From sequence record NC_073323.1: a stretch of DNA of 45,288 nucleotides; one strand, written 5' to 3'. Numbering within the stretch: the stretch's first letter is position 1; every line of letters begins with the position of its first letter. This DNA is from Escherichia phage vB_EcoS-phiEc3. A program made the translations under genes and the position numbers. Positions 4,553-44,323 of this stretch are shown here, piece after piece. Below the pieces are notes generated by a model. That model searched no databases and had not been told where the DNA came from. It saw only the letters and a program-made list of their open reading frames with translations.

Positions 4553-4579
4553 TTTTCACCTCCTGCTTAAGTTAACTGA

Positions 4580-4608
4580 ATAGTACCCTATTATATTGGG
4601 GTGTGCAA
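4580..4608 (-). promoter_or_regulatory. Sigma70-like promoter TTGCAC-17-TACTAT (conserved element copy)
   Basis: -35 at 4603-4608, -10 at 4580-4585 on minus strand; 33-bp core repeated near-identically at 13949-13977 and 37708-37736. Confidence 0.5.
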
Positions 4609-9689: not shown

Positions 9690-10081
9690 GTTTCGCGCTG
9701 GACGTCTCTAAGTTCGTGGAAAAGGCGAAGAAGAACCCTGAGAAGGTGATGCGTCAGGTGTCTATCAAGCTGTTTTCCGCTATTATAAAGGCGAGTCCGG
9801 TAGATACTGGTCGGTTTCGCATGAACTGGATGGCATCTGGCGGTACTCCTGCTTCCGGGATTACGGATGCTACGGATAAATCAGGAAACACAGCAACCGG
9901 AAACGCTACAAGTTTCGTGCTGAAAGCCACCGACTGGCATGAGTTCACGCTGACAAATAACCTGCCGTATGCACAACGGCTGGAGTATGGCTGGTCGCAA
10001 CAGGCCCCGCAAGGATTCGTCAGGACTAACGTGTCCCGCTTCCAGCAACTCATTAACGAAGAAGCTAGCAAGGTGAGATGA
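9686..10081 (+). CDS. Tail completion / neck protein (putative)
   Basis: 131 aa ORF, overlapping coupled starts. Confidence 0.55.
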   Translation: MSFALDVSKFVEKAKKNPEKVMRQVSIKLFSAIIKASPVDTGRFRMNWMASGGTPASGITDATDKSGNTATGNATSFVLKATDWHEFTLTNNLPYAQRLEYGWSQQAPQGFVRTNVSRFQQLINEEASKVR

Positions 10082-10496: not shown

Positions 10497-11663
10497 ATGG
10501 CTACAACTCCTTTTAAGGGCGCGAATACCGCGCAATTCTATGTGGCGGAAGTGACCCCGGGCGTAACACCGGCTAACCCGGTATGGTCGCCGTTGCGCAA
10601 CACGGGCGGCGTTCCTGCCATTACCCGCGACACGCTGACCTCCAACGAACTTGACGGCAGCCGAGAAACCACATCCATCCGCACCGGTAACAAGCAGGTT
10701 AGCGGAGAATACGCTATTGAGCTTAGCTCTAAAAGTCAGGACGACTGGTTAGCCGGGGCTTTAGGCTCTACGTGGCAATCCGGCGTTTCCCTGTCAGGAC
10801 TATCGATTACCGTCGCACCCGCGGGCAAGACGTTCACACGCGCTACCGGCAGTTTTATCACTGACGGAGTTGGGGTAGGCGACCTGATTGCGTTTACCGA
10901 TTTAACAGGCGATAACGCAAAACCATTTATTGTTACTGCAGTAACGGCTACGGTTGTTACTGGTGCGGGCATCCAACACACCCTGACCACCGAGACAAAA
11001 ACTAGTAAGGCTAAAACTGGCGACACGTTGGAAACCGGTAACACGTGTAAGACGTTCTCTATCCTTACCTGGTACAAAGGCCAGTGCGGCGGTACTGACG
11101 CGTACACGTTAACCAAAGGCGTGGAAGTTTCTGGTTTTACCATCGAACAGGCTGTTAACGCGATGGTAACTGGCAGCTTCCCATTCATCGGTCGCAGTCA
11201 GGAGATTCTCACTACGCCGCCGACCGGTTCCAACTTCTCATCTGTTACTTTTGGTGATGAGCCGTTCTCTTCGGTTGACGTTTCCGTGTTCGATGGCTCT
11301 ACGCCGTTGCGTTGTGATAGCCTTACCATCACCAACGACAACAGCGCGTCCGCGCAGTTCGAACTCGGCAACTCTAACGTTGCGTTTGTGGAACGTAGCC
11401 GCGCAGCTAACACCTTCTCCATCTCCGGTAAGCTGTATGACATGGCTATGATTCAGAAGTTTATCAACGAGCAGCAGGTAGAGATTAACTCTATTCTGGC
11501 AGGGGTAAACGGGGCTATGTCTTTCAGTCTGAAACGAGCCGAACTTACGGCGGTTACACCAGAGATTGGCGGCCCGGAGTCAATCACCCAGAGCATAGAA
11601 GGACAGTCCACAGGCAACCAGTACCAGTCGTCTATTGTAATTCAACGTATCACCTACGCATAA
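10497..11663 (+). CDS. Major tail protein (gpV-like N-terminal domain with C-terminal extension)
   Basis: N-terminus FKGANTAQFYVAEV...PANP resembles lambda V; RBS AGAGG; strong terminator follows. Confidence 0.55.
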   Translation: MATTPFKGANTAQFYVAEVTPGVTPANPVWSPLRNTGGVPAITRDTLTSNELDGSRETTSIRTGNKQVSGEYAIELSSKSQDDWLAGALGSTWQSGVSLSGLSITVAPAGKTFTRATGSFITDGVGVGDLIAFTDLTGDNAKPFIVTAVTATVVTGAGIQHTLTTETKTSKAKTGDTLETGNTCKTFSILTWYKGQCGGTDAYTLTKGVEVSGFTIEQAVNAMVTGSFPFIGRSQEILTTPPTGSNFSSVTFGDEPFSSVDVSVFDGSTPLRCDSLTITNDNSASAQFELGNSNVAFVERSRAANTFSISGKLYDMAMIQKFINEQQVEINSILAGVNGAMSFSLKRAELTAVTPEIGGPESITQSIEGQSTGNQYQSSIVIQRITYA

Positions 11664-13906: not shown

Positions 13907-13948
13907 AACATAACTCCTGATTTGAGATAACATCGTTGGTGTAAGTGA

Positions 13949-13977
13949 ATAGTACGCTATTATATTGGGGAGTGCAA
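13949..13977 (-). promoter_or_regulatory. Sigma70-like promoter TTGCAC-17-TACTAT (conserved element copy)
   Basis: Same 33-bp core as 4580-4608; drives minus-strand cassette; plus-orientation -10 TATATT overlaps. Confidence 0.5.
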
Positions 13978-14084
13978 GTAGTGTGCTAGAATAATTTTGC
14001 GCCTAGTGTCGCACACGAAAAGCGGGTGGTTCCCGTCTGGCGCATTTCCTTTAACCAGTAACCTCTTAACCAAAGGATTAAAGA

Positions 14085-27307: not shown

Positions 27308-27595
27308 CTAACTATAATAGTTCGCTATTAGGGCGTCAACCTGTTTAAACGAACCAACGACAAAAACATTAGCACCACGCTTACGCATCCGCTCGTGCTC
27401 CCGTAACTGGTGTGGATCCGGCTTCGTGCTTTCGTCTTTCTTTATCTCGACGAACCAGATGACGCCGCCGGGGAGAATTACCAGCAGGTCAGGGGCGCCG
27501 GAACGTCCTTCGTAGGAAAGTTTACGAACGAGGCCACCAATGGCCTCGAATCGGTCTTTTGCGTATTTCTGTATTTTGCCCTCAGGCGTACTCAT
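27308..27595 (-). CDS. VRR-NUC domain nuclease
   Basis: Motif VIWFVEIKKDESTKPDPHQ (PD-(D/E)XK-like); ATG at 27595 after GAGGGG (track starts at GTG 27631). Confidence 0.6.
   Translation of the reverse strand: MSTPEGKIQKYAKDRFEAIGGLVRKLSYEGRSGAPDLLVILPGGVIWFVEIKKDESTKPDPHQLREHERMRKRGANVFVVGSFKQVDALIANYYS
27311..27339 (-). promoter_or_regulatory. Sigma70-like promoter TTGACG-17-TATAGT with AATAG-N4-CTATT dyad in spacer
   Basis: Same architecture as 31071-31099 and 33982-34010. Confidence 0.5.
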
Positions 27596-31070: not shown

Positions 31071-31099
31071 ACTATAATAGCTAACTATTCATGTGTCAA
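31071..31099 (-). promoter_or_regulatory. Sigma70-like promoter TTGACA-17-TATAGT with AATAG-N4-CTATT dyad
   Basis: Perfect -35, 17-nt spacer. Confidence 0.55.
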
Positions 31100-32885: not shown

Positions 32886-33139
32886 TGGTCAATTAAATGT
32901 CGTGTCTTATGGTCGCAGTGCATGGTCCACCCATACATCGACTCGAAGACATAAAAGTCAGGCTTGGCGAAAGTTGTGCGCTTAATCTGTGACACGTGAC
33001 GGCCTATATCTTTAGGCCGTGGTACTTTTCCTAAGTACGCCATCTCTTCCATCTGGTGCGCACCGGACGGAGCACGCAATAGCCATAGCGCCTCTGTGTT
33101 ATCCCGCCTGTCGACGGCTCGGTAGAGTTGGTAAATCAT
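32867..33139 (-). CDS. Hypothetical protein, 90 aa
   Basis: ORF in coupled array. Confidence 0.45.
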   Translation of the reverse strand: MIYQLYRAVDRRDNTEALWLLRAPSGAHQMEEMAYLGKVPRPKDIGRHVSQIKRTTFAKPDFYVFESMYGWTMHCDHKTRHLIDQWENRV

Positions 33140-33156
33140 AATTCCGACCCTCAGTT

Positions 33157-33176
33157 AAAGCGGCCCGAAGGCCGCG
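33157..33176 (-). terminator. Terminator-like hairpin (GCGGCC-CGAA-GGCCGC)
   Basis: GC stem; short T run on minus strand. Confidence 0.35.
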
Positions 33177-33182
33177 AGATAG

Positions 33183-33701
33183 TTATTCTTCTTCGAAATA
33201 CTTGTTCTTGATTGCTGTCAGGCGTTCCAGGTACTCAACCAGGTCTTCGTCTTTAATCGCGGCAATCTTCATCTTCTTACCTGTGAACTCTTCCAGCAGT
33301 TCATCAGAATCATCGCACGCGGCATCGCTAGGACCTTCATTAATTGCATCGTCGATGGCCTGAATCTGGTCACGCAGAGACTTGTAATCGACTTCTTCTT
33401 TCTCTTCTTCCGGTTCGGGCGCAGGTTCCTCTACTTTAGCTTTACGCGGCTTGCGTTTTGGCTTCTCTTCCTCCGCCGGTTTAGTGTCAACTACGTCTTC
33501 ACCCTCGACCGGGATTTCTTTTGTTTCTTCTTTTACAACAGTAGGCGTGATTGTTGCAGTTTCTGCGACACCACTGTCGACGTCTTTACCATATGGCGCC
33601 GTGATAGCCTTCGGCAGTTCAGTACGGCGTGCACTGTTCGCAGCAATCAGTTCATGCGCAACTACGAAACGTTCCAGTAATACTAAGAATTTCTCTAACA
33701 T
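33183..33701 (-). CDS. Hypothetical acidic protein with Lys/Pro-rich linker
   Basis: 172 aa, KPKRKPRKAK segment and acidic C-terminus. Confidence 0.5.
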   Translation of the reverse strand: MLEKFLVLLERFVVAHELIAANSARRTELPKAITAPYGKDVDSGVAETATITPTVVKEETKEIPVEGEDVVDTKPAEEEKPKRKPRKAKVEEPAPEPEEEKEEVDYKSLRDQIQAIDDAINEGPSDAACDDSDELLEEFTGKKMKIAAIKDEDLVEYLERLTAIKNKYFEEE

Positions 33702-33725
33702 TATTTATTCTCCTGTTTATTTGGG

Positions 33726-33953
33726 TTACTCGCCGTCGCCTTCTGTAAGGCTATCGTCTATTAATTCAAATTTACCGTTTGGGTGTTGAATAGCTTCTTG
33801 CCCGCAATGGTCGCAGACAACAAGTTTATCGAACCCATCAAACTCGTCCCCGACTACGCAAGAAAGTACAAATTTATGTTTTGTGCACACTTCCTGCGAT
33901 TCTCCGAAAATTACCCGGAAACATTTAGTTATAGCTCCAGTGATTATGTTCAT
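33726..33953 (-). CDS. Hypothetical Cys-rich small protein
   Basis: C...C...CDHC pattern; first gene downstream of promoter at 33982-34010. Confidence 0.5.
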   Translation of the reverse strand: MNIITGAITKCFRVIFGESQEVCTKHKFVLSCVVGDEFDGFDKLVVCDHCGQEAIQHPNGKFELIDDSLTEGDGE

Positions 33954-33981
33954 ATCTTCACCTCTCGTTTGGTATGGGCTA

Positions 33982-34010
33982 ACTATAATAGCGAACTATT
34001 CACTTGTCAA
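33982..34010 (-). promoter_or_regulatory. Sigma70-like promoter TTGACA-17-TATAGT with AATAG-N4-CTATT dyad
   Basis: Perfect -35, 17-nt spacer; divergent from HTH gene. Confidence 0.55.
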
Positions 34011-34014
34011 TGGG

Positions 34015-34043
34015 CTTTTCTAAAATAATTAATATGGTACTAT
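34015..34043 (+). promoter_or_regulatory. Candidate promoter for HTH gene (TACTAT -10, weak -35)
   Basis: -10 TACTATTCA matches conserved element; AAGGAG RBS at 34061. Confidence 0.3.
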
Positions 34044-34074
34044 TCACACATCAACTGACTAAGGAGTAATTGAC

Positions 34075-34290
34075 ATGCAACCATCCGAACTAGGCATCCG
34101 TGTAGAGCAACGCCGTAAAGAACTCGGCATCTCCCAGCGCCGTCTGGCTGTCCTGGCCGGTGTCTCCCAGGGCGCAATTAACCAGCTGGCTCTCGGTGTA
34201 ACTCAGGACGTCCGCCCGGCAACGTTGTTTAAACTGGCGGAAGTGCTGGAAGTAGACGCTAAGTGGCTGGCGTTCGGTGAAGGGGCTTGA
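34075..34290 (+). CDS. XRE-family helix-turn-helix transcriptional regulator
   Basis: HTH pattern LGISQRRLAVLAGVSQGAINQL; own RBS and terminator; opposite strand to neighbours. Confidence 0.7.
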   Translation: MQPSELGIRVEQRRKELGISQRRLAVLAGVSQGAINQLALGVTQDVRPATLFKLAEVLEVDAKWLAFGEGA

Positions 34291-34306
34291 CGCCCCTTTC
34301 TTTTTA
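34281..34306 (+). terminator. Intrinsic terminator (AGGGGC-TTGAC-GCCCCT then T run)
   Basis: Overlaps HTH stop codon; TTTCTTTTTAT tail. Confidence 0.6.
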
Positions 34307-34501
34307 TTGCACCTTTATCGGGTATCTTTTGCGAAACTTACCTAACCCGCAGTACACGCTGTAAGCCTCTGTGTAACTGAACACAACATGATACCCGCGC
34401 CCATAAGGAACTACGTTAAGAACTTCTACTACTTCGCCTCTGTGGTTGGTGTATTTATTACCTTTCAGTTCGTCGCTTACTTCTTTAAATTTACCGCTCA
34501 T
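34304..34501 (-). CDS. Hypothetical protein, 65 aa
   Basis: ORF coupled downstream of primase-helicase. Confidence 0.45.
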   Translation of the reverse strand: MSGKFKEVSDELKGNKYTNHRGEVVEVLNVVPYGRGYHVVFSYTEAYSVYCGLGKFRKRYPIKVQ

Positions 34502-36777
34502 TCCAAATCCTCCTCTGTCACTGTCAACATTTCATTCGGTTCGTATATTGTCTTTGGAATCTTGTTATCAGTTATTCTGGTGTTCAGCCTGTAACGACCT
34601 GGGATTATCTGATTGTTTTCGTCAGTACCCGGAACAAGATACCCAGCCTCAACCATTTTCTTAATCTTCCCGCGTTCTATGGCTTCTTTGGAGTTAAACG
34701 CCTTTGCGTTGGGGTCAGACTGCGCGAGCTTATTCGCTGCGGATACCGTGATGCCCTCGTTGCCGTTGTAGGTCCCCTCCGCCAGTTCAAACGCCGCGAG
34801 TATCGTGGCCTCGGAACTGTTGACGGCGTTCTCTATGGTTTTACGTACATTTTGTTTACCTTCGTTAGTTAACCCTTCTTCCCTCTCTTTCTCCTCGTCG
34901 GTCTTGAATGGCTCGAAGCCCCACGGCATCAATACAAGCGCCTTGTGCGGCTCAGGCAGGTCGAGGTTTACTATTGTGCCGTATTCCTCTGTGCTACCGA
35001 GGAACTCAACCGCGCGGTACTCTTTCGGCGGCGGTGCTTCACGGAACTGTACAGACTCCAGTACCATGCCAACCGTCTTCTGTTGAGGACCGTGCTTAAA
35101 TTTAGAGTGGTATACGTTTATCTGACGGTCGGTAGCGCGTTCGATTGTCAGTTCCACGTCGACACCCGCATACAATGCTCCACTGCCGCGGGCTTTCTTT
35201 CCGCCCTTCGGAGTATGGTGAACGACACCGACAGCGGCTTTAGTTGCATCGCGCACTTCTTTCAGGATGGCGATAACTTTACCCATACCGATTGCCGTTG
35301 ATGAACTGTTCTCGTCGAACTTATCAATCGTCAGGGCCAGCGTCTGGTTAAGGGTGTCGAAGGCAACCATGCCAATAGGTTCATCCCCTGCGGTTTCGCG
35401 CATCCTGCGGATTAGAGCTGGAATTTTTTTATCACCATGCGTAGCGAGTATTTCGCCCATATCGATGACATGTACATAATCTTTACCTTCCTCGCCATAT
35501 TTAGCCGCGAGTGCATCAATACGTGTTCGTGTAGCTGCACCACCCTCGCCGTCAATATAGAAATGGTGGCAACGTTGGGTGTCAGCCCCCGCAAACCGGT
35601 ACCCGGCGGCGCTCAGGTACATCATCCCCAGCGTATAGAATGATTTGTACGTGCCGGATTCCCCGACAATATCCCAGATACAATCCGACGGCATGTACCC
35701 CTCAACGACGAAATCAGCCTTTACCGGTTCTGGTAACTCGTCCTCTTCTTCAAGGTCTTCCAGGTCGTCGAGGCTGCATGAGACAGATTCACGCGCCCCC
35801 CAACCGATGGCCTCTGCGACTTCACTGAACGGCAGCCCGGTCGCATCGCACGCGTACTTCCACACCTCTTTCGGTGACAGGCCTTCTGTCGCCGTAATGT
35901 CTGTGTCGTGAATCATGGTTACGTTTGGCGCTTCATACCCCTCGCGCGGGAAGCACAGCAGGAAGTCGTCCGGGCGCGGTGTCGGGTCGCTGTAGTTTTC
36001 GGCATGTTCCGGTGTGGCTGGCATCTTAAGGCCGCGCGGCGTCATGACGCCGCCGTACTCAAACGCCAGTGCTTCAAACGCGTCTGTAAACGCGGTGCGC
36101 AGTTCTTCCGGTATCTGGTAATCCGATGCGCTGCTAACGTCAACGGCTGGGATGCCTTCCAGTAACTCGTTCGGGTCGATCAGGTCGTTGCGGCGCGACC
36201 AGATAACGGTAGCGCCGACCGGCGGCAGGTACATCGGCTGCGACAGAGTGAACCCGCTGCGGTCAGCGCCCATGCCTTCGAAGAAGTGCTCCAGCAAGCC
36301 ATGACGAACACGGATGATGTCGCCGCCTTCAACCGGGCGGCTCAGCGGCATGACGACGCGAAAGCGCGGTGACTCATCGGTATGTGATGCCGTGGTGTAG
36401 AGACACATCGCCCGGCGGCTGCGATTAACCAGGCGCACCGCTTCCTGGTACTCTTCCGGTGTTGCACTGTCGAAGTCCAGATACGCCAGCGACGATTTGC
36501 TCACAGACGCGTCACAGCGATAGAAGAAGCCTTTACGCGCTTGCTTAAAGTCACCGGTTTCCGGGTCTTTTACAGTGCTGTGCGCAGAGTCGCACGCGGC
36601 AGTAATATAGCCTGGCGCTGTCTTCGGGTTGATCCCGTCACGAACAGCATCGAGCGGCTGGATTAACTCTTTCAGGTCATCCAGTGTTGCCGTGTGTGTG
36701 GTTCTGACGTTTATATCCTTTTTCTCTGCCCGCGCGTTGCGACGTGACCACGAGTAGGATAAAATTACATCGGACAT
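34498..36777 (-). CDS. Primase-helicase (prim-pol-like N-terminus, RecA-like NTPase C-terminal half)
   Basis: YLDFDS and TASHT motifs N-terminally, P-loop-like GESGTYKS, 759 aa. Confidence 0.6.
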   Translation of the reverse strand: MSDVILSYSWSRRNARAEKKDINVRTTHTATLDDLKELIQPLDAVRDGINPKTAPGYITAACDSAHSTVKDPETGDFKQARKGFFYRCDASVSKSSLAYLDFDSATPEEYQEAVRLVNRSRRAMCLYTTASHTDESPRFRVVMPLSRPVEGGDIIRVRHGLLEHFFEGMGADRSGFTLSQPMYLPPVGATVIWSRRNDLIDPNELLEGIPAVDVSSASDYQIPEELRTAFTDAFEALAFEYGGVMTPRGLKMPATPEHAENYSDPTPRPDDFLLCFPREGYEAPNVTMIHDTDITATEGLSPKEVWKYACDATGLPFSEVAEAIGWGARESVSCSLDDLEDLEEEDELPEPVKADFVVEGYMPSDCIWDIVGESGTYKSFYTLGMMYLSAAGYRFAGADTQRCHHFYIDGEGGAATRTRIDALAAKYGEEGKDYVHVIDMGEILATHGDKKIPALIRRMRETAGDEPIGMVAFDTLNQTLALTIDKFDENSSSTAIGMGKVIAILKEVRDATKAAVGVVHHTPKGGKKARGSGALYAGVDVELTIERATDRQINVYHSKFKHGPQQKTVGMVLESVQFREAPPPKEYRAVEFLGSTEEYGTIVNLDLPEPHKALVLMPWGFEPFKTDEEKEREEGLTNEGKQNVRKTIENAVNSSEATILAAFELAEGTYNGNEGITVSAANKLAQSDPNAKAFNSKEAIERGKIKKMVEAGYLVPGTDENNQIIPGRYRLNTRITDNKIPKTIYEPNEMLTVTEEDLE

Positions 36778-36835
36778 GTTGTATTTCCTTCAGCAAATAA
36801 TTTGGCCTCGGCGTTCACCGCGTCGGGGCTTTCTT

Positions 36836-37126
36836 TTATCTTTTAGCCAGACATTCCATCAAATGTGCGTACTTACGATAATAATCTGCGACAATCTCAT
36901 CACCGAAATACTGATAAACGTAGGATAGGTGGTCGGAGACATCGATGGAAGCCGACATTGTGCTGAGTCTTCTTAGACTAATCGACTGCAATTCTTCTGT
37001 AACGCAAAACGGCAAATATGAGTCCAGTTTACAGGAAACGTTAAAACACAACGCATACTCACCTTGCACTAAATAGACCATATAAGCACTGTCATTTTCT
37101 TTATCGTGGAAAATTACACCTTTCAT
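36836..37126 (-). CDS. Hypothetical protein, 96 aa
   Basis: ORF in leftward early operon. Confidence 0.45.
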   Translation of the reverse strand: MKGVIFHDKENDSAYMVYLVQGEYALCFNVSCKLDSYLPFCVTEELQSISLRRLSTMSASIDVSDHLSYVYQYFGDEIVADYYRKYAHLMECLAKR

Positions 37127-37293
37127 TTCACGTTCTCCTTAATCCACGCTTCAACTTTATTACGGTCAAATGTTCCTGGTAAACGGCGCCCCATTACTTT
37201 AACGCTGCAATCAGGAAACTTTCCACTCTTAATCCAGTTATTGATTGTCTGGCGGGTGACGCCGATTAATTCTGCAACTTCATTGATAGTCAT
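37123..37293 (-). CDS. AlpA/excisionase-like HTH DNA-binding protein
   Basis: Motif MTINEVAELIGVTRQTINNWIKSGKFP; ATG at 37293 after AGGAG (track extends to 37383 via TTG). Confidence 0.6.
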   Translation of the reverse strand: MTINEVAELIGVTRQTINNWIKSGKFPDCSVKVMGRRLPGTFDRNKVEAWIKENVK

Positions 37294-37322
37294 CTCGCGC
37301 TCTCCTGTGTAATATGTATCGA

Positions 37323-37351
37323 AGTATAAGGCGGTAACTTTGTAAAAGCAA
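37323..37351 (-). promoter_or_regulatory. Sigma70-like promoter TTGCTT-17-TATACT (leftward early)
   Basis: 17-nt spacer; 8-bp inverted repeat TAACTTTG/CAAAGTTA at 37335-37342 and 37365-37372. Confidence 0.45.
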
Positions 37352-37707: not shown

Positions 37708-37736
37708 TTGCACACCCCAACATAATAGGATACTAT
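37708..37736 (+). promoter_or_regulatory. Sigma70-like promoter TTGCAC-17-TACTAT (conserved element copy)
   Basis: Same core as 4580-4608 and 13949-13977; AGGAG RBS follows. Confidence 0.5.
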
Positions 37737-37770
37737 TCACTTATCGGAACGAGACAGAGGAGTGATGGTT

Positions 37771-38992: not shown

Positions 38993-39021
38993 TTGCACAC
39001 TAAGATAGAATAGGCTACTAT
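38993..39021 (+). promoter_or_regulatory. Sigma70-like promoter TTGCAC-17-TACTAT
   Basis: Contains GAATAGG-N-CTACTATTC dyad. Confidence 0.5.
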
Positions 39022-39052
39022 TCATTTACACAAACTAGAGGAGAGACAGAGG

Positions 39053-39796: not shown

Positions 39797-39996
39797 CCAG
39801 CATCTTATTTATCTGGGTATTGTCGGCGGGCCAGATGCAACTGGCGGCAACAGAAACGTTTTACTCAATGGAGGCGTGCCAGTCAGCGGCACGCGCCGCA
39901 GAGAACGCGCACTTCCTGTTTCAGGGGGACAAGCCCATCGATTCAGAGGTACGCGCTATCTGCTCACCTAAGCGACTTGGTAAACAGGAGAAATAA
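39793..39996 (+). CDS. Small secreted/membrane protein, 67 aa
   Basis: AAGGAG RBS; hydrophobic N-terminus TSILFIWVLSAG. Confidence 0.5.
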   Translation: MTSILFIWVLSAGQMQLAATETFYSMEACQSAARAAENAHFLFQGDKPIDSEVRAICSPKRLGKQEK

Positions 39997-39997
39997 C

Positions 39998-40192
39998 ATG
40001 GTACAGAGATACGAGTTAGAGTTGTTTCATCAGAAAGGTGGCTCGGTAAACCCGTGCGATGATGGTGGATACATAGAGTACGAAGATTACGCGAAACTCG
40101 AAGCCGAGTTACAGAAATACAAGGACCAGTTTCCTGATTACGTTGAGTGCGCGAACTGTGGGTCAGTTACACATGTGGAAGGGGTGGAGTGA
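39998..40192 (+). CDS. Hypothetical early protein, 64 aa
   Basis: RBS CAGGAG then ATG at 39998. Confidence 0.45.
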   Translation: MVQRYELELFHQKGGSVNPCDDGGYIEYEDYAKLEAELQKYKDQFPDYVECANCGSVTHVEGVE

Positions 40193-40485
40193 TGTCTCTG
40201 GCAACTGACATCCTGAAACGAAGCGGCCTTGCGCCGCTGTCACCGAGAGCGAACACCCGAATATACAAGCGCCGCCGTAACGCGCTGTACCCCGAGATAC
40301 AAGAACGGCGTAAAGCTATCCGCGCCTGTGGATTCCAGAACGGGAAGGCCGTTAATCTAGGTGAGTTCAAAACACAGGAACGTGCTGCAATCGCTAATCG
40401 GCTATTTAATTACTGGAAATCTCTTGGTTATGATGATATTCCGACGAAACCGCAGAGACGACAATACATCTGGAGACATAAATGA
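40192..40485 (+). CDS. Hypothetical basic protein, 97 aa
   Basis: ATG overlapping upstream stop. Confidence 0.45.
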   Translation: MSLATDILKRSGLAPLSPRANTRIYKRRRNALYPEIQERRKAIRACGFQNGKAVNLGEFKTQERAAIANRLFNYWKSLGYDDIPTKPQRRQYIWRHK

Positions 40486-40922
40486 CTACTATCGCGTTCG
40501 ACGGAAAGACAATGGCCTGCGACACCCGTGTTGTGTGCGGGAGTAACTGTTACAACACAGACACAAAGATATACGAGAACGATTTTGCTGTTATCGGGGT
40601 GGCTGGTGATGCGGGGGTGGGGACTATGCTTATCGATTGCCCTGATATTCTTCAGGCAAAGCACTATGACTTCGATTTCGAAGCCCTTGTGTTCGTGAAA
40701 GACACAGAAAAGGTGTATAAAGTCGCTTTTTATAAATCGTGGGATTGCGCCCTTAGTTCGGTTATTCCGGTTGCGGATGGCTTTGCAGCTGTTGGTTCCG
40801 GCGCACCTTATGCACTGGCGGCTATGGAATGCGGATATTCGGCACATGGTGGCGTAGCCGTTGCGTCGAAGTTCGACACCAACACCGGCGGCAAGATTAT
40901 TACCAAACAACTATTAGGATAA
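40482..40922 (+). CDS. HslV-like Ntn-hydrolase (proteasome beta-type peptidase)
   Basis: N-terminal MTTIAF (Thr nucleophile at position 2), [17 protein letters not shown] and [12 protein letters not shown] alignable to HslV. Confidence 0.6.
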   Translation: [146 protein letters not shown]

Positions 40923-40981
40923 TTCCTAAGCGTGGTATCCTCCAGTTACTGCATACTTAATACGCACCTGGAGGATTCATC

Positions 40982-41290
40982 TTGGATAAATTTACTGAAA
41001 CAGTGACAGGCTGGCTTCTCGCTGCCGCACTCGCCGGAGGGGTCATCGGACTACGACAACATAAGTCCGTTATTTCTGGACCCATCGACGGCTTATTCTT
41101 TATTGTAACCGGCTTCGCTTGCGCCGTATTCGGTGCGCCTCTCGCTGCCCAATGGTTCGGCATTACCGGGGAGCGTGAAATCGCTGGTCTGGGTTTCATC
41201 ATCGCTATTCTCTGGATGCCTATCTATTCCCGCCTCTCCGGTATCGTCGCCGGGGAATACATCTCACGTCGAGGAGGCCCGGATGAATGA
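40982..41290 (+). CDS. Holin (three predicted TM helices)
   Basis: TTG start 7 nt after GGAGGA; precedes endolysin. Confidence 0.55.
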   Translation: MDKFTETVTGWLLAAALAGGVIGLRQHKSVISGPIDGLFFIVTGFACAVFGAPLAAQWFGITGEREIAGLGFIIAILWMPIYSRLSGIVAGEYISRRGGPDE

Positions 41291-42117: not shown

Positions 42118-42202
42118 ATCTATTTTCTGTGATGACGAGTTGACTATTATCCTCGACCCTATTATATTTACTTCATCGACAACGAGAACGGAGTAGAGAG
42201 AA

Positions 42203-44090: not shown

Positions 44091-44323
44091 TTACCAGCAT
44101 TCCGAACCTGATTGAAGAATTTGGCACGATGGCGGAGACATGCCGTCAAACCGGCATCAATGAGATGACGATTGCCAAGTACAGCAAAGACGTTGATTGC
44201 GAACGCCATGTAATTTATAACAACCGTCTGATGACGCACGTTAAGACAAGCCCGGTGTTATTCACGCGCCGTGGTATCACTAAAACAGAGCAACGCATTG
44301 CGCGAGAGGAGAGCGGGGAATGA
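44087..44323 (+). CDS. Hypothetical protein, 78 aa
   Basis: TTG start after GGGAGA. Confidence 0.4.
   Translation: MITSIPNLIEEFGTMAETCRQTGINEMTIAKYSKDVDCERHVIYNNRLMTHVKTSPVLFTRRGITKTEQRIAREESGE

Follow-up and report, generated by a model that had tools for sequence, protein, structure and literature searches.

A 71-residue helix-turn-helix (HTH) protein encoded by Escherichia phage vB_EcoS-phiEc3 is probably, at odds that we put near six in ten, a dimeric and autoregulated repressor of the 434 Cro type that lowers transcription from early and middle promoters through a short dyad, AATAG-N4-CTATT, as judged from sequence comparisons. The window analysed was sequence record NC_073323.1 at its full length of 45,288 nucleotides, which is a whole genome of the genus Kagunavirus, subfamily Guernseyvirinae. 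A role of this protein in early-gene shut-off is considered probable because the candidate dyad is built into nearly all strong promoters of the phage. Proteins of this type are ordinary, and the part that we could not find described is a genome-wide set of operators across a virulent subfamily. In the openly readable part of the literature, the search returned no study of transcription or regulation in Guernseyvirinae; no source searched linked the HTH gene to promoter dyads and no binding, expression or genetic data were found for the family.

The HTH gene, as read from the ORF, extends on the plus strand from an ATG at 34075 to a TGA at 34288-34290 and lies, as the original prediction had stated, amid minus-strand genes, with orf65 and the helicase-primase gene on its right and orf75 through the exonuclease gene on its left. 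The 71-codon frame is a real gene and its product is a member of the HTH_3 (XRE) family of Cro/CI type. Thus, the match to Pfam HTH_3 (PF01381) was obtained with an E-value of 2.3e-12 and a score of 47.2 bits (cut-off 23), the HTH_19 and HTH_31 profiles likewise scored above the Pfam threshold, and the frame was open in all 31 distinct Kagunavirus sequences. The antisense ORF at 34040-34177 (minus strand) was disrupted in 8 of these 31. Variable sites at first, second and third codon positions numbered 20, 7 and 57, respectively, in the same set of sequences, and from this pattern of variation the gene is evidently under purifying selection.

The ribosome-binding site, -10 hexamer and terminator that had been ascribed to this gene were each found (Table 1). 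The -10, TACTAT at 34038-34043, is the same hexamer as in four other promoters of the genome, and the TG at 34035-34036 on its 5' side makes it an extended -10; this promoter was unchanged across the 31 Kagunavirus sequences. The terminator, previously placed at 34281-34306, agreed to within a few bases with a G+C-rich hairpin at 34279-34299 (-14.6 kcal/mol) that is followed by UUUCUUUUUAUU, and the stop codon of the gene sits within the hairpin loop. The HTH gene is, in other words, a monocistronic unit with its own promoter and terminator. Transcripts from the leftward promoter of the primase operon converge on it, and since the minus-strand version of the terminator hairpin lacks a U tract, with no canonical terminator noted on that strand, these transcripts probably run antisense through the HTH gene.

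Annotation of the gene differed between database records. In the record of Escherichia phage vB_Eco_K-01 (PQ435593.1), the HTH gene is unannotated even though the sequence is 100% identical to the phiEc3 genome over 33000-36000, and a spurious antisense ORF of 45 aa is annotated at 11278-11415 instead. The RefSeq record of phage K1G (NC_027993.1) likewise contains an intact, unannotated HTH gene at about 33420-33640.

Among solved structures, the nearest relative of the protein by sequence was phage 434 Cro, also of 71 aa (phmmer, 1zug_A, E 5.4e-7, residues 6-68), followed by the N-terminal domain of 434 repressor. A single-sequence AlphaFold2 model (mean pLDDT 84) predicted helices at residues 5-17, 21-28, 32-39, 48-57 and 62-66, which is a five-helix fold like that of lambda repressor. 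The best match of this model in the PDB by Foldseek was again 434 Cro (2cro), with 434 repressor, HipB and SinR among the other top matches, and identity to 434 Cro was about 38-41% in structural alignments. Both 434 Cro and 434 repressor bind 14-bp operators of two-fold symmetry in which the outermost base is A (PDB 3CRO), and in the 3CRO structure this adenine is contacted by Gln28 of 434 Cro. Gln32 of the phiEc3 protein aligns with Gln28; this first-position Gln of helix 3 was invariant in every lineage examined, as was the outer A of the half-site. Apart from the shared length and (in phiEc3 predicted) five-helix fold, the candidate phiEc3 operator resembles that of 434 in its 14-bp length, two-fold symmetry, outer A and unconstrained centre, and the HTH gene, like the 434 cro gene, sits at a divergent promoter region. 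In contrast with 434 Cro (2CRO, 3CRO, 1ZUG), which has a CI partner and an OR1-OR2-OR3 array, the phiEc3 protein has neither, its candidate operators occur singly at seven or eight promoters spread over the genome of a virulent phage, and the half-site is AATAG as opposed to ACAA.

Seven perfect copies of AATAG-N4-CTATT were present in the phiEc3 genome compared with 0.04 expected, a number that was reached in none of 100 shuffles, and 10 copies were present when one mismatch was allowed, compared with 1.0 expected. All seven perfect dyads lie in the cores of strong or moderate sigma-70-like promoters, each with a Shine-Dalgarno sequence and a start codon after it. Across the 31 Kagunavirus sequences the half-sites were constant and the central N4 varied. 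The promoters fall into two classes, the first (class A) having the sequence TTGCAC-N17-TACTAT with -35 elements that start at 4608 and 13977 on the minus strand and at 37708 and 38993 on the plus strand, and the second (class B) having the sequence TTGAC(A/G)-N17-TATAGT with -35 elements that start at 27339, 31099 and 34010, all on the minus strand. The dyad lies across the -10 in class A and within the spacer in class B, where it ends on the first base of the -10. This difference of 7 bp in register between the two classes identifies the dyad as an element independent of the -10.

The strong minus-strand promoter from which the HTH gene had been said to diverge is the class B promoter with the -35 start at 34010, which carries a perfect dyad as claimed and serves orf75, orf172 and the genes beyond them as far as that for the PD-(D/E)XK exonuclease. 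The centre of this dyad is 44 bp from that of the imperfect dyad over the -10 of the HTH gene. The class A promoter in the tail region serves an island of genes for a superinfection-immunity-like protein, a phosphoesterase/exonuclease and a kinase. Between this promoter and the gene for the tail assembly chaperone, a match to the Rfam int-alpA RNA was noted at 13996-14060 on the plus strand, with a score of 36.6 bits against a gathering threshold of 35.8 bits (E 4.8e-4).

Two other good promoters lacked the complete dyad. The promoter of the late region has class B architecture with the right half-site only (TCCTC-gacc-CTAT, then TATATT), and the late-region promoter of a Jerseyvirus (L040, from 17914, plus strand) was likewise without the left half-site. 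The phiEc3 late-region promoter looks like one that escaped the operator, and it is predicted to escape repression. The other dyad-less promoter is that of the primase operon.

Table 1. Promoters, dyads and other features of the phiEc3 window, and helix 3 regions with the corresponding promoter elements in phiEc3 and related lineages.
Feature	Position	Strand	Sequence and context
Class A promoter	4580-4608	-	dyad 4579-4592; small leftward gene within head genes
Class A promoter	13949-13977	-	dyad 13948-13961; leftward island within tail genes
Class B promoter	27311-27339	-	TTGACG-N17-TATAGT; dyad 27316-27329; 5' of small ORF, methyltransferase and helicase genes
Class B promoter	31071-31099	-	dyad 31076-31089; 5' of Gp2.5-like ssDNA-binding protein and DNA polymerase genes
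Class B leftward promoter	33982-34010	-	TTGACA-N17-TATAGT; 11/12 consensus matches
Perfect dyad, candidate operator	33987-34000		AATAGCGAACTATT (AATAG-CGAA-CTATT); spacer of leftward promoter, touching -10
Imperfect dyad, candidate autoregulatory operator	34031-34044		AATATGGTACTATT; 1 mismatch; over -10 of HTH gene
HTH gene promoter	34035-34043	+	extended -10 TGgTACTAT; without good -35
Shine-Dalgarno of HTH gene	34061-34066	+	AAGGAG; 8 nt 5' of ATG
Intrinsic terminator of HTH gene	34279-34309	+	8-bp stem, 5-nt loop, U tract
Dyad-less promoter	37323-37351	-	TTGCTT-N17-TATACT; operon of HTH_17, orf96, helicase-primase and orf65
Class A promoter	37708-37736	+	TTGCAC-N17-TACTAT; dyad 37724-37737 over -10; first rightward small-gene block
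Class A promoter	38993-39021	+	dyad 39009-39022; second rightward small-gene block, continuing to lysis genes
Dyad-less promoter	42140-42168	+	TTGACT-N17-TATATT; small ORFs leading into terminase and structural region
Predicted recognition helix 3 of 71-aa protein	residues 32-39		QGAINQLA; AlphaFold2 model
Helix 3 region and element, Kagunavirus and L039			VSQGAINQLALG; AATAG-N4-CTATT
Helix 3 region and element, Jerseyvirus			VSQSLITHLATG; TAATAG-N4-CTATTA
Helix 3 region and element, Tsm2			VSQGMLNHLRGG; AATAG-N4-CTATT
Helix 3 region and element, L050 and L093			MTQGGIGHIVTG (L093: ITQGGIGHIVTG); AATAC-N4-GTATT
Helix 3 region and element, L052-54			FSQGRVSHICLG; AATAN-N4-NTATT
Helix 3 region and element, Cornellvirus			VTQSAISHLCCG; asymmetric, AATA(C/G)-N4-(C/A)TAAT
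Helix 3 region and element, L058 and L062			ASQGYISHLRSG; ATTAG-N4-CTAA(A/C)

A further sequence motif, A(C/T)CnAACGAG, was noted in 5'-UTRs at about +8 to +20 on the 3' side of the -10, right before the Shine-Dalgarno sequence. It was present at the promoters with -35 starts at 13977, 27339, 34010, 37708, 38993 and 42140, and thus at dyad-bearing and dyad-less promoters alike, and similar strings were seen in promoters of Jerseyvirus, Tsm2, L052 and L058.

The distribution of the HTH gene was followed in relatives of phiEc3. The 3-kb stretch from 33000 to 36000 was 100% identical to vB_Eco_K-01 and 99.5% identical to phiEc4, and the 3-kb region around the HTH gene matched 464 phage records, nearly all of them Kagunavirus or Jerseyvirus. 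In tblastn searches, the HTH protein was matched in about 115 Kagunavirus records (at least 94% identity) and about 350 Jerseyvirus records (about 50% identity) as well as in Cornellviruses and Serratia phage Tsm2. The gene was also present in 33 of 33 Kagunavirus loci from IMG/VR, in the type species K1G and in the sampled genomes of Jersey, Cornell and Tsm2 type. Numbers of records with the HTH gene and with a Gp2.5-like ssDNA-binding protein marker were 356 versus 354 for Salmonella and 11 versus 11 for records named 'Kagunavirus'. The combination of dyads kept and gene absent, which the original prediction had singled out, was not seen in any of the sampled lineages. Serratia phage eta has only the structural module in common with the Guernseyvirinae group and was uninformative on the HTH locus. 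Orthologues have already been annotated as gp42 of Ent1, ORF49 of SGP-C, 'transcriptional repressor DicA' of phiEc4 and 'CRO' of Golestan; each is the same gene in the same position with an identity of 50-100%, and these annotations in Guernseyvirinae were made by homology alone.

Gene order at the locus differed between lineages in the strand of the primase gene. The helicase-primase gene of Cornellviruses, Tsm2 and four metagenomic lineages is downstream of the HTH gene on the same strand, and in these phages the HTH gene is the first of a rightward replication operon that is divergent from the leftward operon. The Kagunavirus and Jerseyvirus primase module (34304-37351, minus strand, in phiEc3) is reversed and comes with an HTH_17 gene and a dyad-less promoter of its own; in comparisons with L003, L004, L005, L050, L052 and L058, the module showed only 26-33% identity to the primase encoded on the plus strand in other lineages. 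The low identity together with the HTH_17 gene and separate promoter indicates replacement of the module rather than a simple inversion. Because the HTH gene leads a primase-containing operon in other lineages, its 'opposite orientation' in phiEc3 is a derived condition. Comparison of these gene orders identifies the HTH gene as the fixed anchor of the divergent promoter region.

The promoter elements of different lineages were compared with the helix 3 regions of the corresponding HTH proteins (Table 1, where the region includes the residues before the helix, Gly-Val-Ser in phiEc3, and the Gly that follows). In an unbiased test, every near-palindrome within 170 bp upstream of the HTH gene was counted over the locus, and the lineage elements were recovered in five of seven lineages. 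Thus, the palindrome beside the HTH gene recurred 10 times in phiEc3 (0.85 expected), 7 times in Jerseyvirus (0.55 expected), 5 times in L058 (ATTAG-N4, 0.35 expected), 4 times in L050 (AATAC-N4, 0.4 expected) and 4 times in L052 (0.5-0.7 expected). Given that both half-sites change together across several promoters, the factor that recognises the dyad is likely to be dimeric, encoded by the phage and evolving with its sites.

These comparisons bear on the suggestion that the dyad is a binding site for a protein of the host, or an intrinsic component of promoter cassettes copied around the genome, which we regard as very unlikely. The finding of one core dyad in phages of E. coli, Salmonella and Serratia is in keeping with such an origin, and since the promoters share -35, -10 and 5'-UTR motifs besides the dyad, part of the dyad over-representation could reflect copied cassettes. 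The two registers of the dyad relative to the -10, 7 bp apart, are those of an independent element, however, and the half-sites change jointly in L050 (AATAC...GTATT) and in L058 (ATTAG...CTAA). Moreover, Jerseyviruses and Cornellviruses infect the same host species, Salmonella enterica, and nevertheless differ in promoter element, which argues against a host factor. We know of no E. coli regulator with a consensus that the dyad matches.

Helix 3 and dyad did not correspond perfectly. Helix 3 differs among Kaguna- (QGAINQ), Jersey- (QSLITH) and Tsm2-type (QGMLNH) proteins, and the AATAG core is common to all three; conversely, L052 and L058 have the same residues at the four helix 3 positions expected to face DNA and different dyads. 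A residue-by-residue code between helix 3 and half-site was sought over eight lineages and no decodable pattern emerged. Differences between lineages in the HTH protein and in the sites could both simply follow phylogeny. The HTH gene is kept in Cornellviruses, where only asymmetric elements and no clean recurrent palindrome were found, and in the metagenomic lineage of L091, L096 and L106, where no clean recurrent dyad was found in the locus. In L091 and L096, where the helix 3 region reads LSQSALSFVQNG, a perfect 12-bp palindrome, ATACTATAGTAT, was observed to enclose the -10 of the HTH gene (about 9904-9945). In Tsm2, the palindrome test gave no good site adjoining the HTH gene and dyads are located elsewhere.

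The results for Tsm2 and the imperfect match of helix 3 to dyad would both be accommodated if the HTH protein acted only at its own divergent promoter pair and the remaining dyads were bound by another phage protein of unrecognised fold, an arrangement that we consider unlikely although less so than a host or cassette origin. Such a binder could be a small protein with no family match, given that a Pfam search of 35 other ORFs (mostly small and of no assigned function) gave no confident match to a DNA-binding family; one sub-threshold NinH-like match was noted at 44129-44323, and PHROGs and PADLOC returned generic regulator or HTH matches only. As opposed to this arrangement, the sites in the divergent promoter and over the -10 of the HTH gene itself share their sequence with distant sites, the variant beside the HTH gene in L050, L058 and L052 is the one that recurs at distant promoters, and the HTH gene is universal, unlike the small genes, which show poor conservation from one lineage to the next.

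The HTH_17 protein (37123-37293, minus strand), encoded by the one further gene of the window with a confident DNA-binding match, was rejected as the dyad binder. Matches to it in tblastn were confined to Kagunaviruses and Jerseyviruses, where it accompanies the reversed primase module, and the regions retrieved from five dyad-bearing lineages (Tsm2, Cornellvirus, L050, L052 and L058) yielded no copy of its gene. The view of the original prediction that the 71-aa protein is the leading candidate for the regulator of the dyads was upheld, in that its gene was present in every Kagunavirus and Jerseyvirus locus examined, HTH_17 was not seen in the regions retrieved from several dyad-bearing lineages, and several lineages have their own variant element beside their HTH gene.

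Other identities for the HTH protein were rejected on gene context. An antitoxin of HigA/HipB type was ruled out on the basis that the HTH unit is monocistronic with both neighbours on the opposite strand, and a restriction-modification controller on the basis that no endonuclease gene adjoins it and the methyltransferase gene lies at a distance of about 7 kb; a defence-system reading was likewise ruled out on gene context. The controller proteins C.AhdI and C.BclI, which were among the Foldseek matches of the phiEc3 protein, are small HTH_3 dimers that regulate their own synthesis through palindromic boxes in their own promoter. Unlike the genes for these proteins, the phiEc3 gene has no adjacent restriction endonuclease gene, and the corresponding sites lie over many promoters.

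The preferred reading, that of a repressor of early and middle promoters, can be laid out as a model in which binding, dimerisation, repression and timing are proposed from the gene and its signals, the dyads and their statistics, conservation and lineage variants. At the start of infection, host RNA polymerase would fire all seven or eight promoters with dyads, and the modest extended -10 promoter of the HTH gene, together with a strong Shine-Dalgarno sequence, would give rise to the HTH protein. The protein would then bind the 14-bp dyad AATAG-N4-CTATT as a dimer and, with the dyad in the promoter core occupied, host polymerase would be blocked. As the protein accumulated, it would lower the leftward replication and recombination operons, and the same repression would fall on the rightward small-gene blocks and on the two leftward islands in the structural genes. 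Synthesis of the HTH protein would be restrained in turn by the weaker site that covers the extended -10 of its gene, and the promoters without a full dyad, those of the primase operon and late region, would stay on. The proposed behaviour has a functional analogy in lambda and P22 Cro, which are small early proteins that act through operators overlapping the early promoters and lower early transcription, their own included, in lytic growth. In contrast with phiEc3, lambda Cro has a different fold, and lambda and P22 Cro act on two promoters in the immunity region in competition with CI; phiEc3 has no competitor and no lysogeny genes.

The layout of the locus had been described as a Cro-like switch that lacks an integrase and long repressor. 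The likeness to Cro held, with 434 Cro as the closest relative, as did the absence of lysogeny functions. Thus, whole-genome annotations of phiEc4 and vB_Eco_K-01 listed no integrase, no long CI-type repressor and no partition system, and the only repressor listed in either was the 71-aa HTH gene. The divergent neighbour of the HTH gene is orf75, followed by orf172 and the exonuclease gene, with one site per promoter and no CI. A CI/Cro lysis-lysogeny switch was ruled out, given that the phage lacks CI, a tripartite operator and an integrase, and the word 'switch' overstates the locus since there is no second repressor.

Reports on related phages differ with respect to temperate behaviour. The family has been described as strictly lytic (PMC12919940), whereas the Jerseyvirus SGP-C was reported to produce turbid plaques, phage-releasing 'lysogens' and superinfection immunity, possibly as an episome, and its authors, who called the orthologue Cro-like, used it together with the plaque and immunity traits as evidence of a temperate phage (PMC8790156). 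When 5,426 complete E. coli genomes were searched with the region, no match was found. A search of 72,556 plasmid records gave a single match, a 44,086-bp circular 'plasmid' (L139, CP088689.1, pC16EC0033-2) from a clinical E. coli blood isolate, which matched 83% of the 3-kb HTH-region query at 97.5% identity and had the HTH gene and its neighbours in the same order. By this identity and gene order (5.9 kb read), CP088689.1 looks like a Kagunavirus genome, and its presence looks like the result of carriage or contamination. Since the 5,426 genomes of E. coli yielded no copy and the plasmids a single record, stable lysogeny is unlikely, and occasional carriage of Kagunavirus genomes may occur.

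The turbid plaques, immune phage-releasing clones and possible episome of SGP-C (PMC8790156), the Kagunavirus-like 'plasmid' in a clinical E. coli assembly and the coverage of replication promoters by dyads would each fit a protein that serves mainly as an immunity-type repressor, one that silences the whole genome and lets a superinfection-immune carrier or episomal state arise, instead of timing lytic growth. We hold this to be highly improbable, in view of the near absence of the region from E. coli genomes (0 of 5,426) and plasmids (1 of 72,556), the lack of an integrase, partition system or long repressor, and the description of the family as strictly lytic (PMC12919940). Moreover, full silencing is not expected of a repressor when the promoters of the primase operon and late region carry no dyad. 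A combined form, in which one 71-aa Cro-like protein, with no CI or integrase, was the master regulator of a regulon common to the virulent subfamily and at high dose brought about an unstable immune carrier state like that of SGP-C, is a long shot; if true, phages that are employed in therapy and regarded as strictly lytic would possess an immunity system made up of a single protein.

The phages most frequently isolated for biocontrol and therapy of E. coli and Salmonella include the Guernseyvirinae (Kaguna-, Jersey- and Cornellviruses), and Kagunaviruses have been proposed as a chassis for synthetic biology (PMC11990801). If the repressor model is right, about eight promoters in phages that depend on host polymerase would be turned down by a single small protein with a 14-bp operator, and the operator variants of different lineages would be a natural set of orthogonal repressor-promoter pairs. 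The findings also bear on decisions about phage safety, in which a gene labelled 'repressor', 'Cro' or 'DicA', once taken as a sign of a temperate phage, is to be read in a genome context that holds no lysogeny module.

A difference between phiEc3 and vB_Eco_K-01 was noted away from the HTH locus. Five CDS of PQ435593, for an HslV-like peptidase and its neighbours, had no exact match in phiEc3 at about 39800-41100, and this looks like a local mosaic difference between the two genomes.
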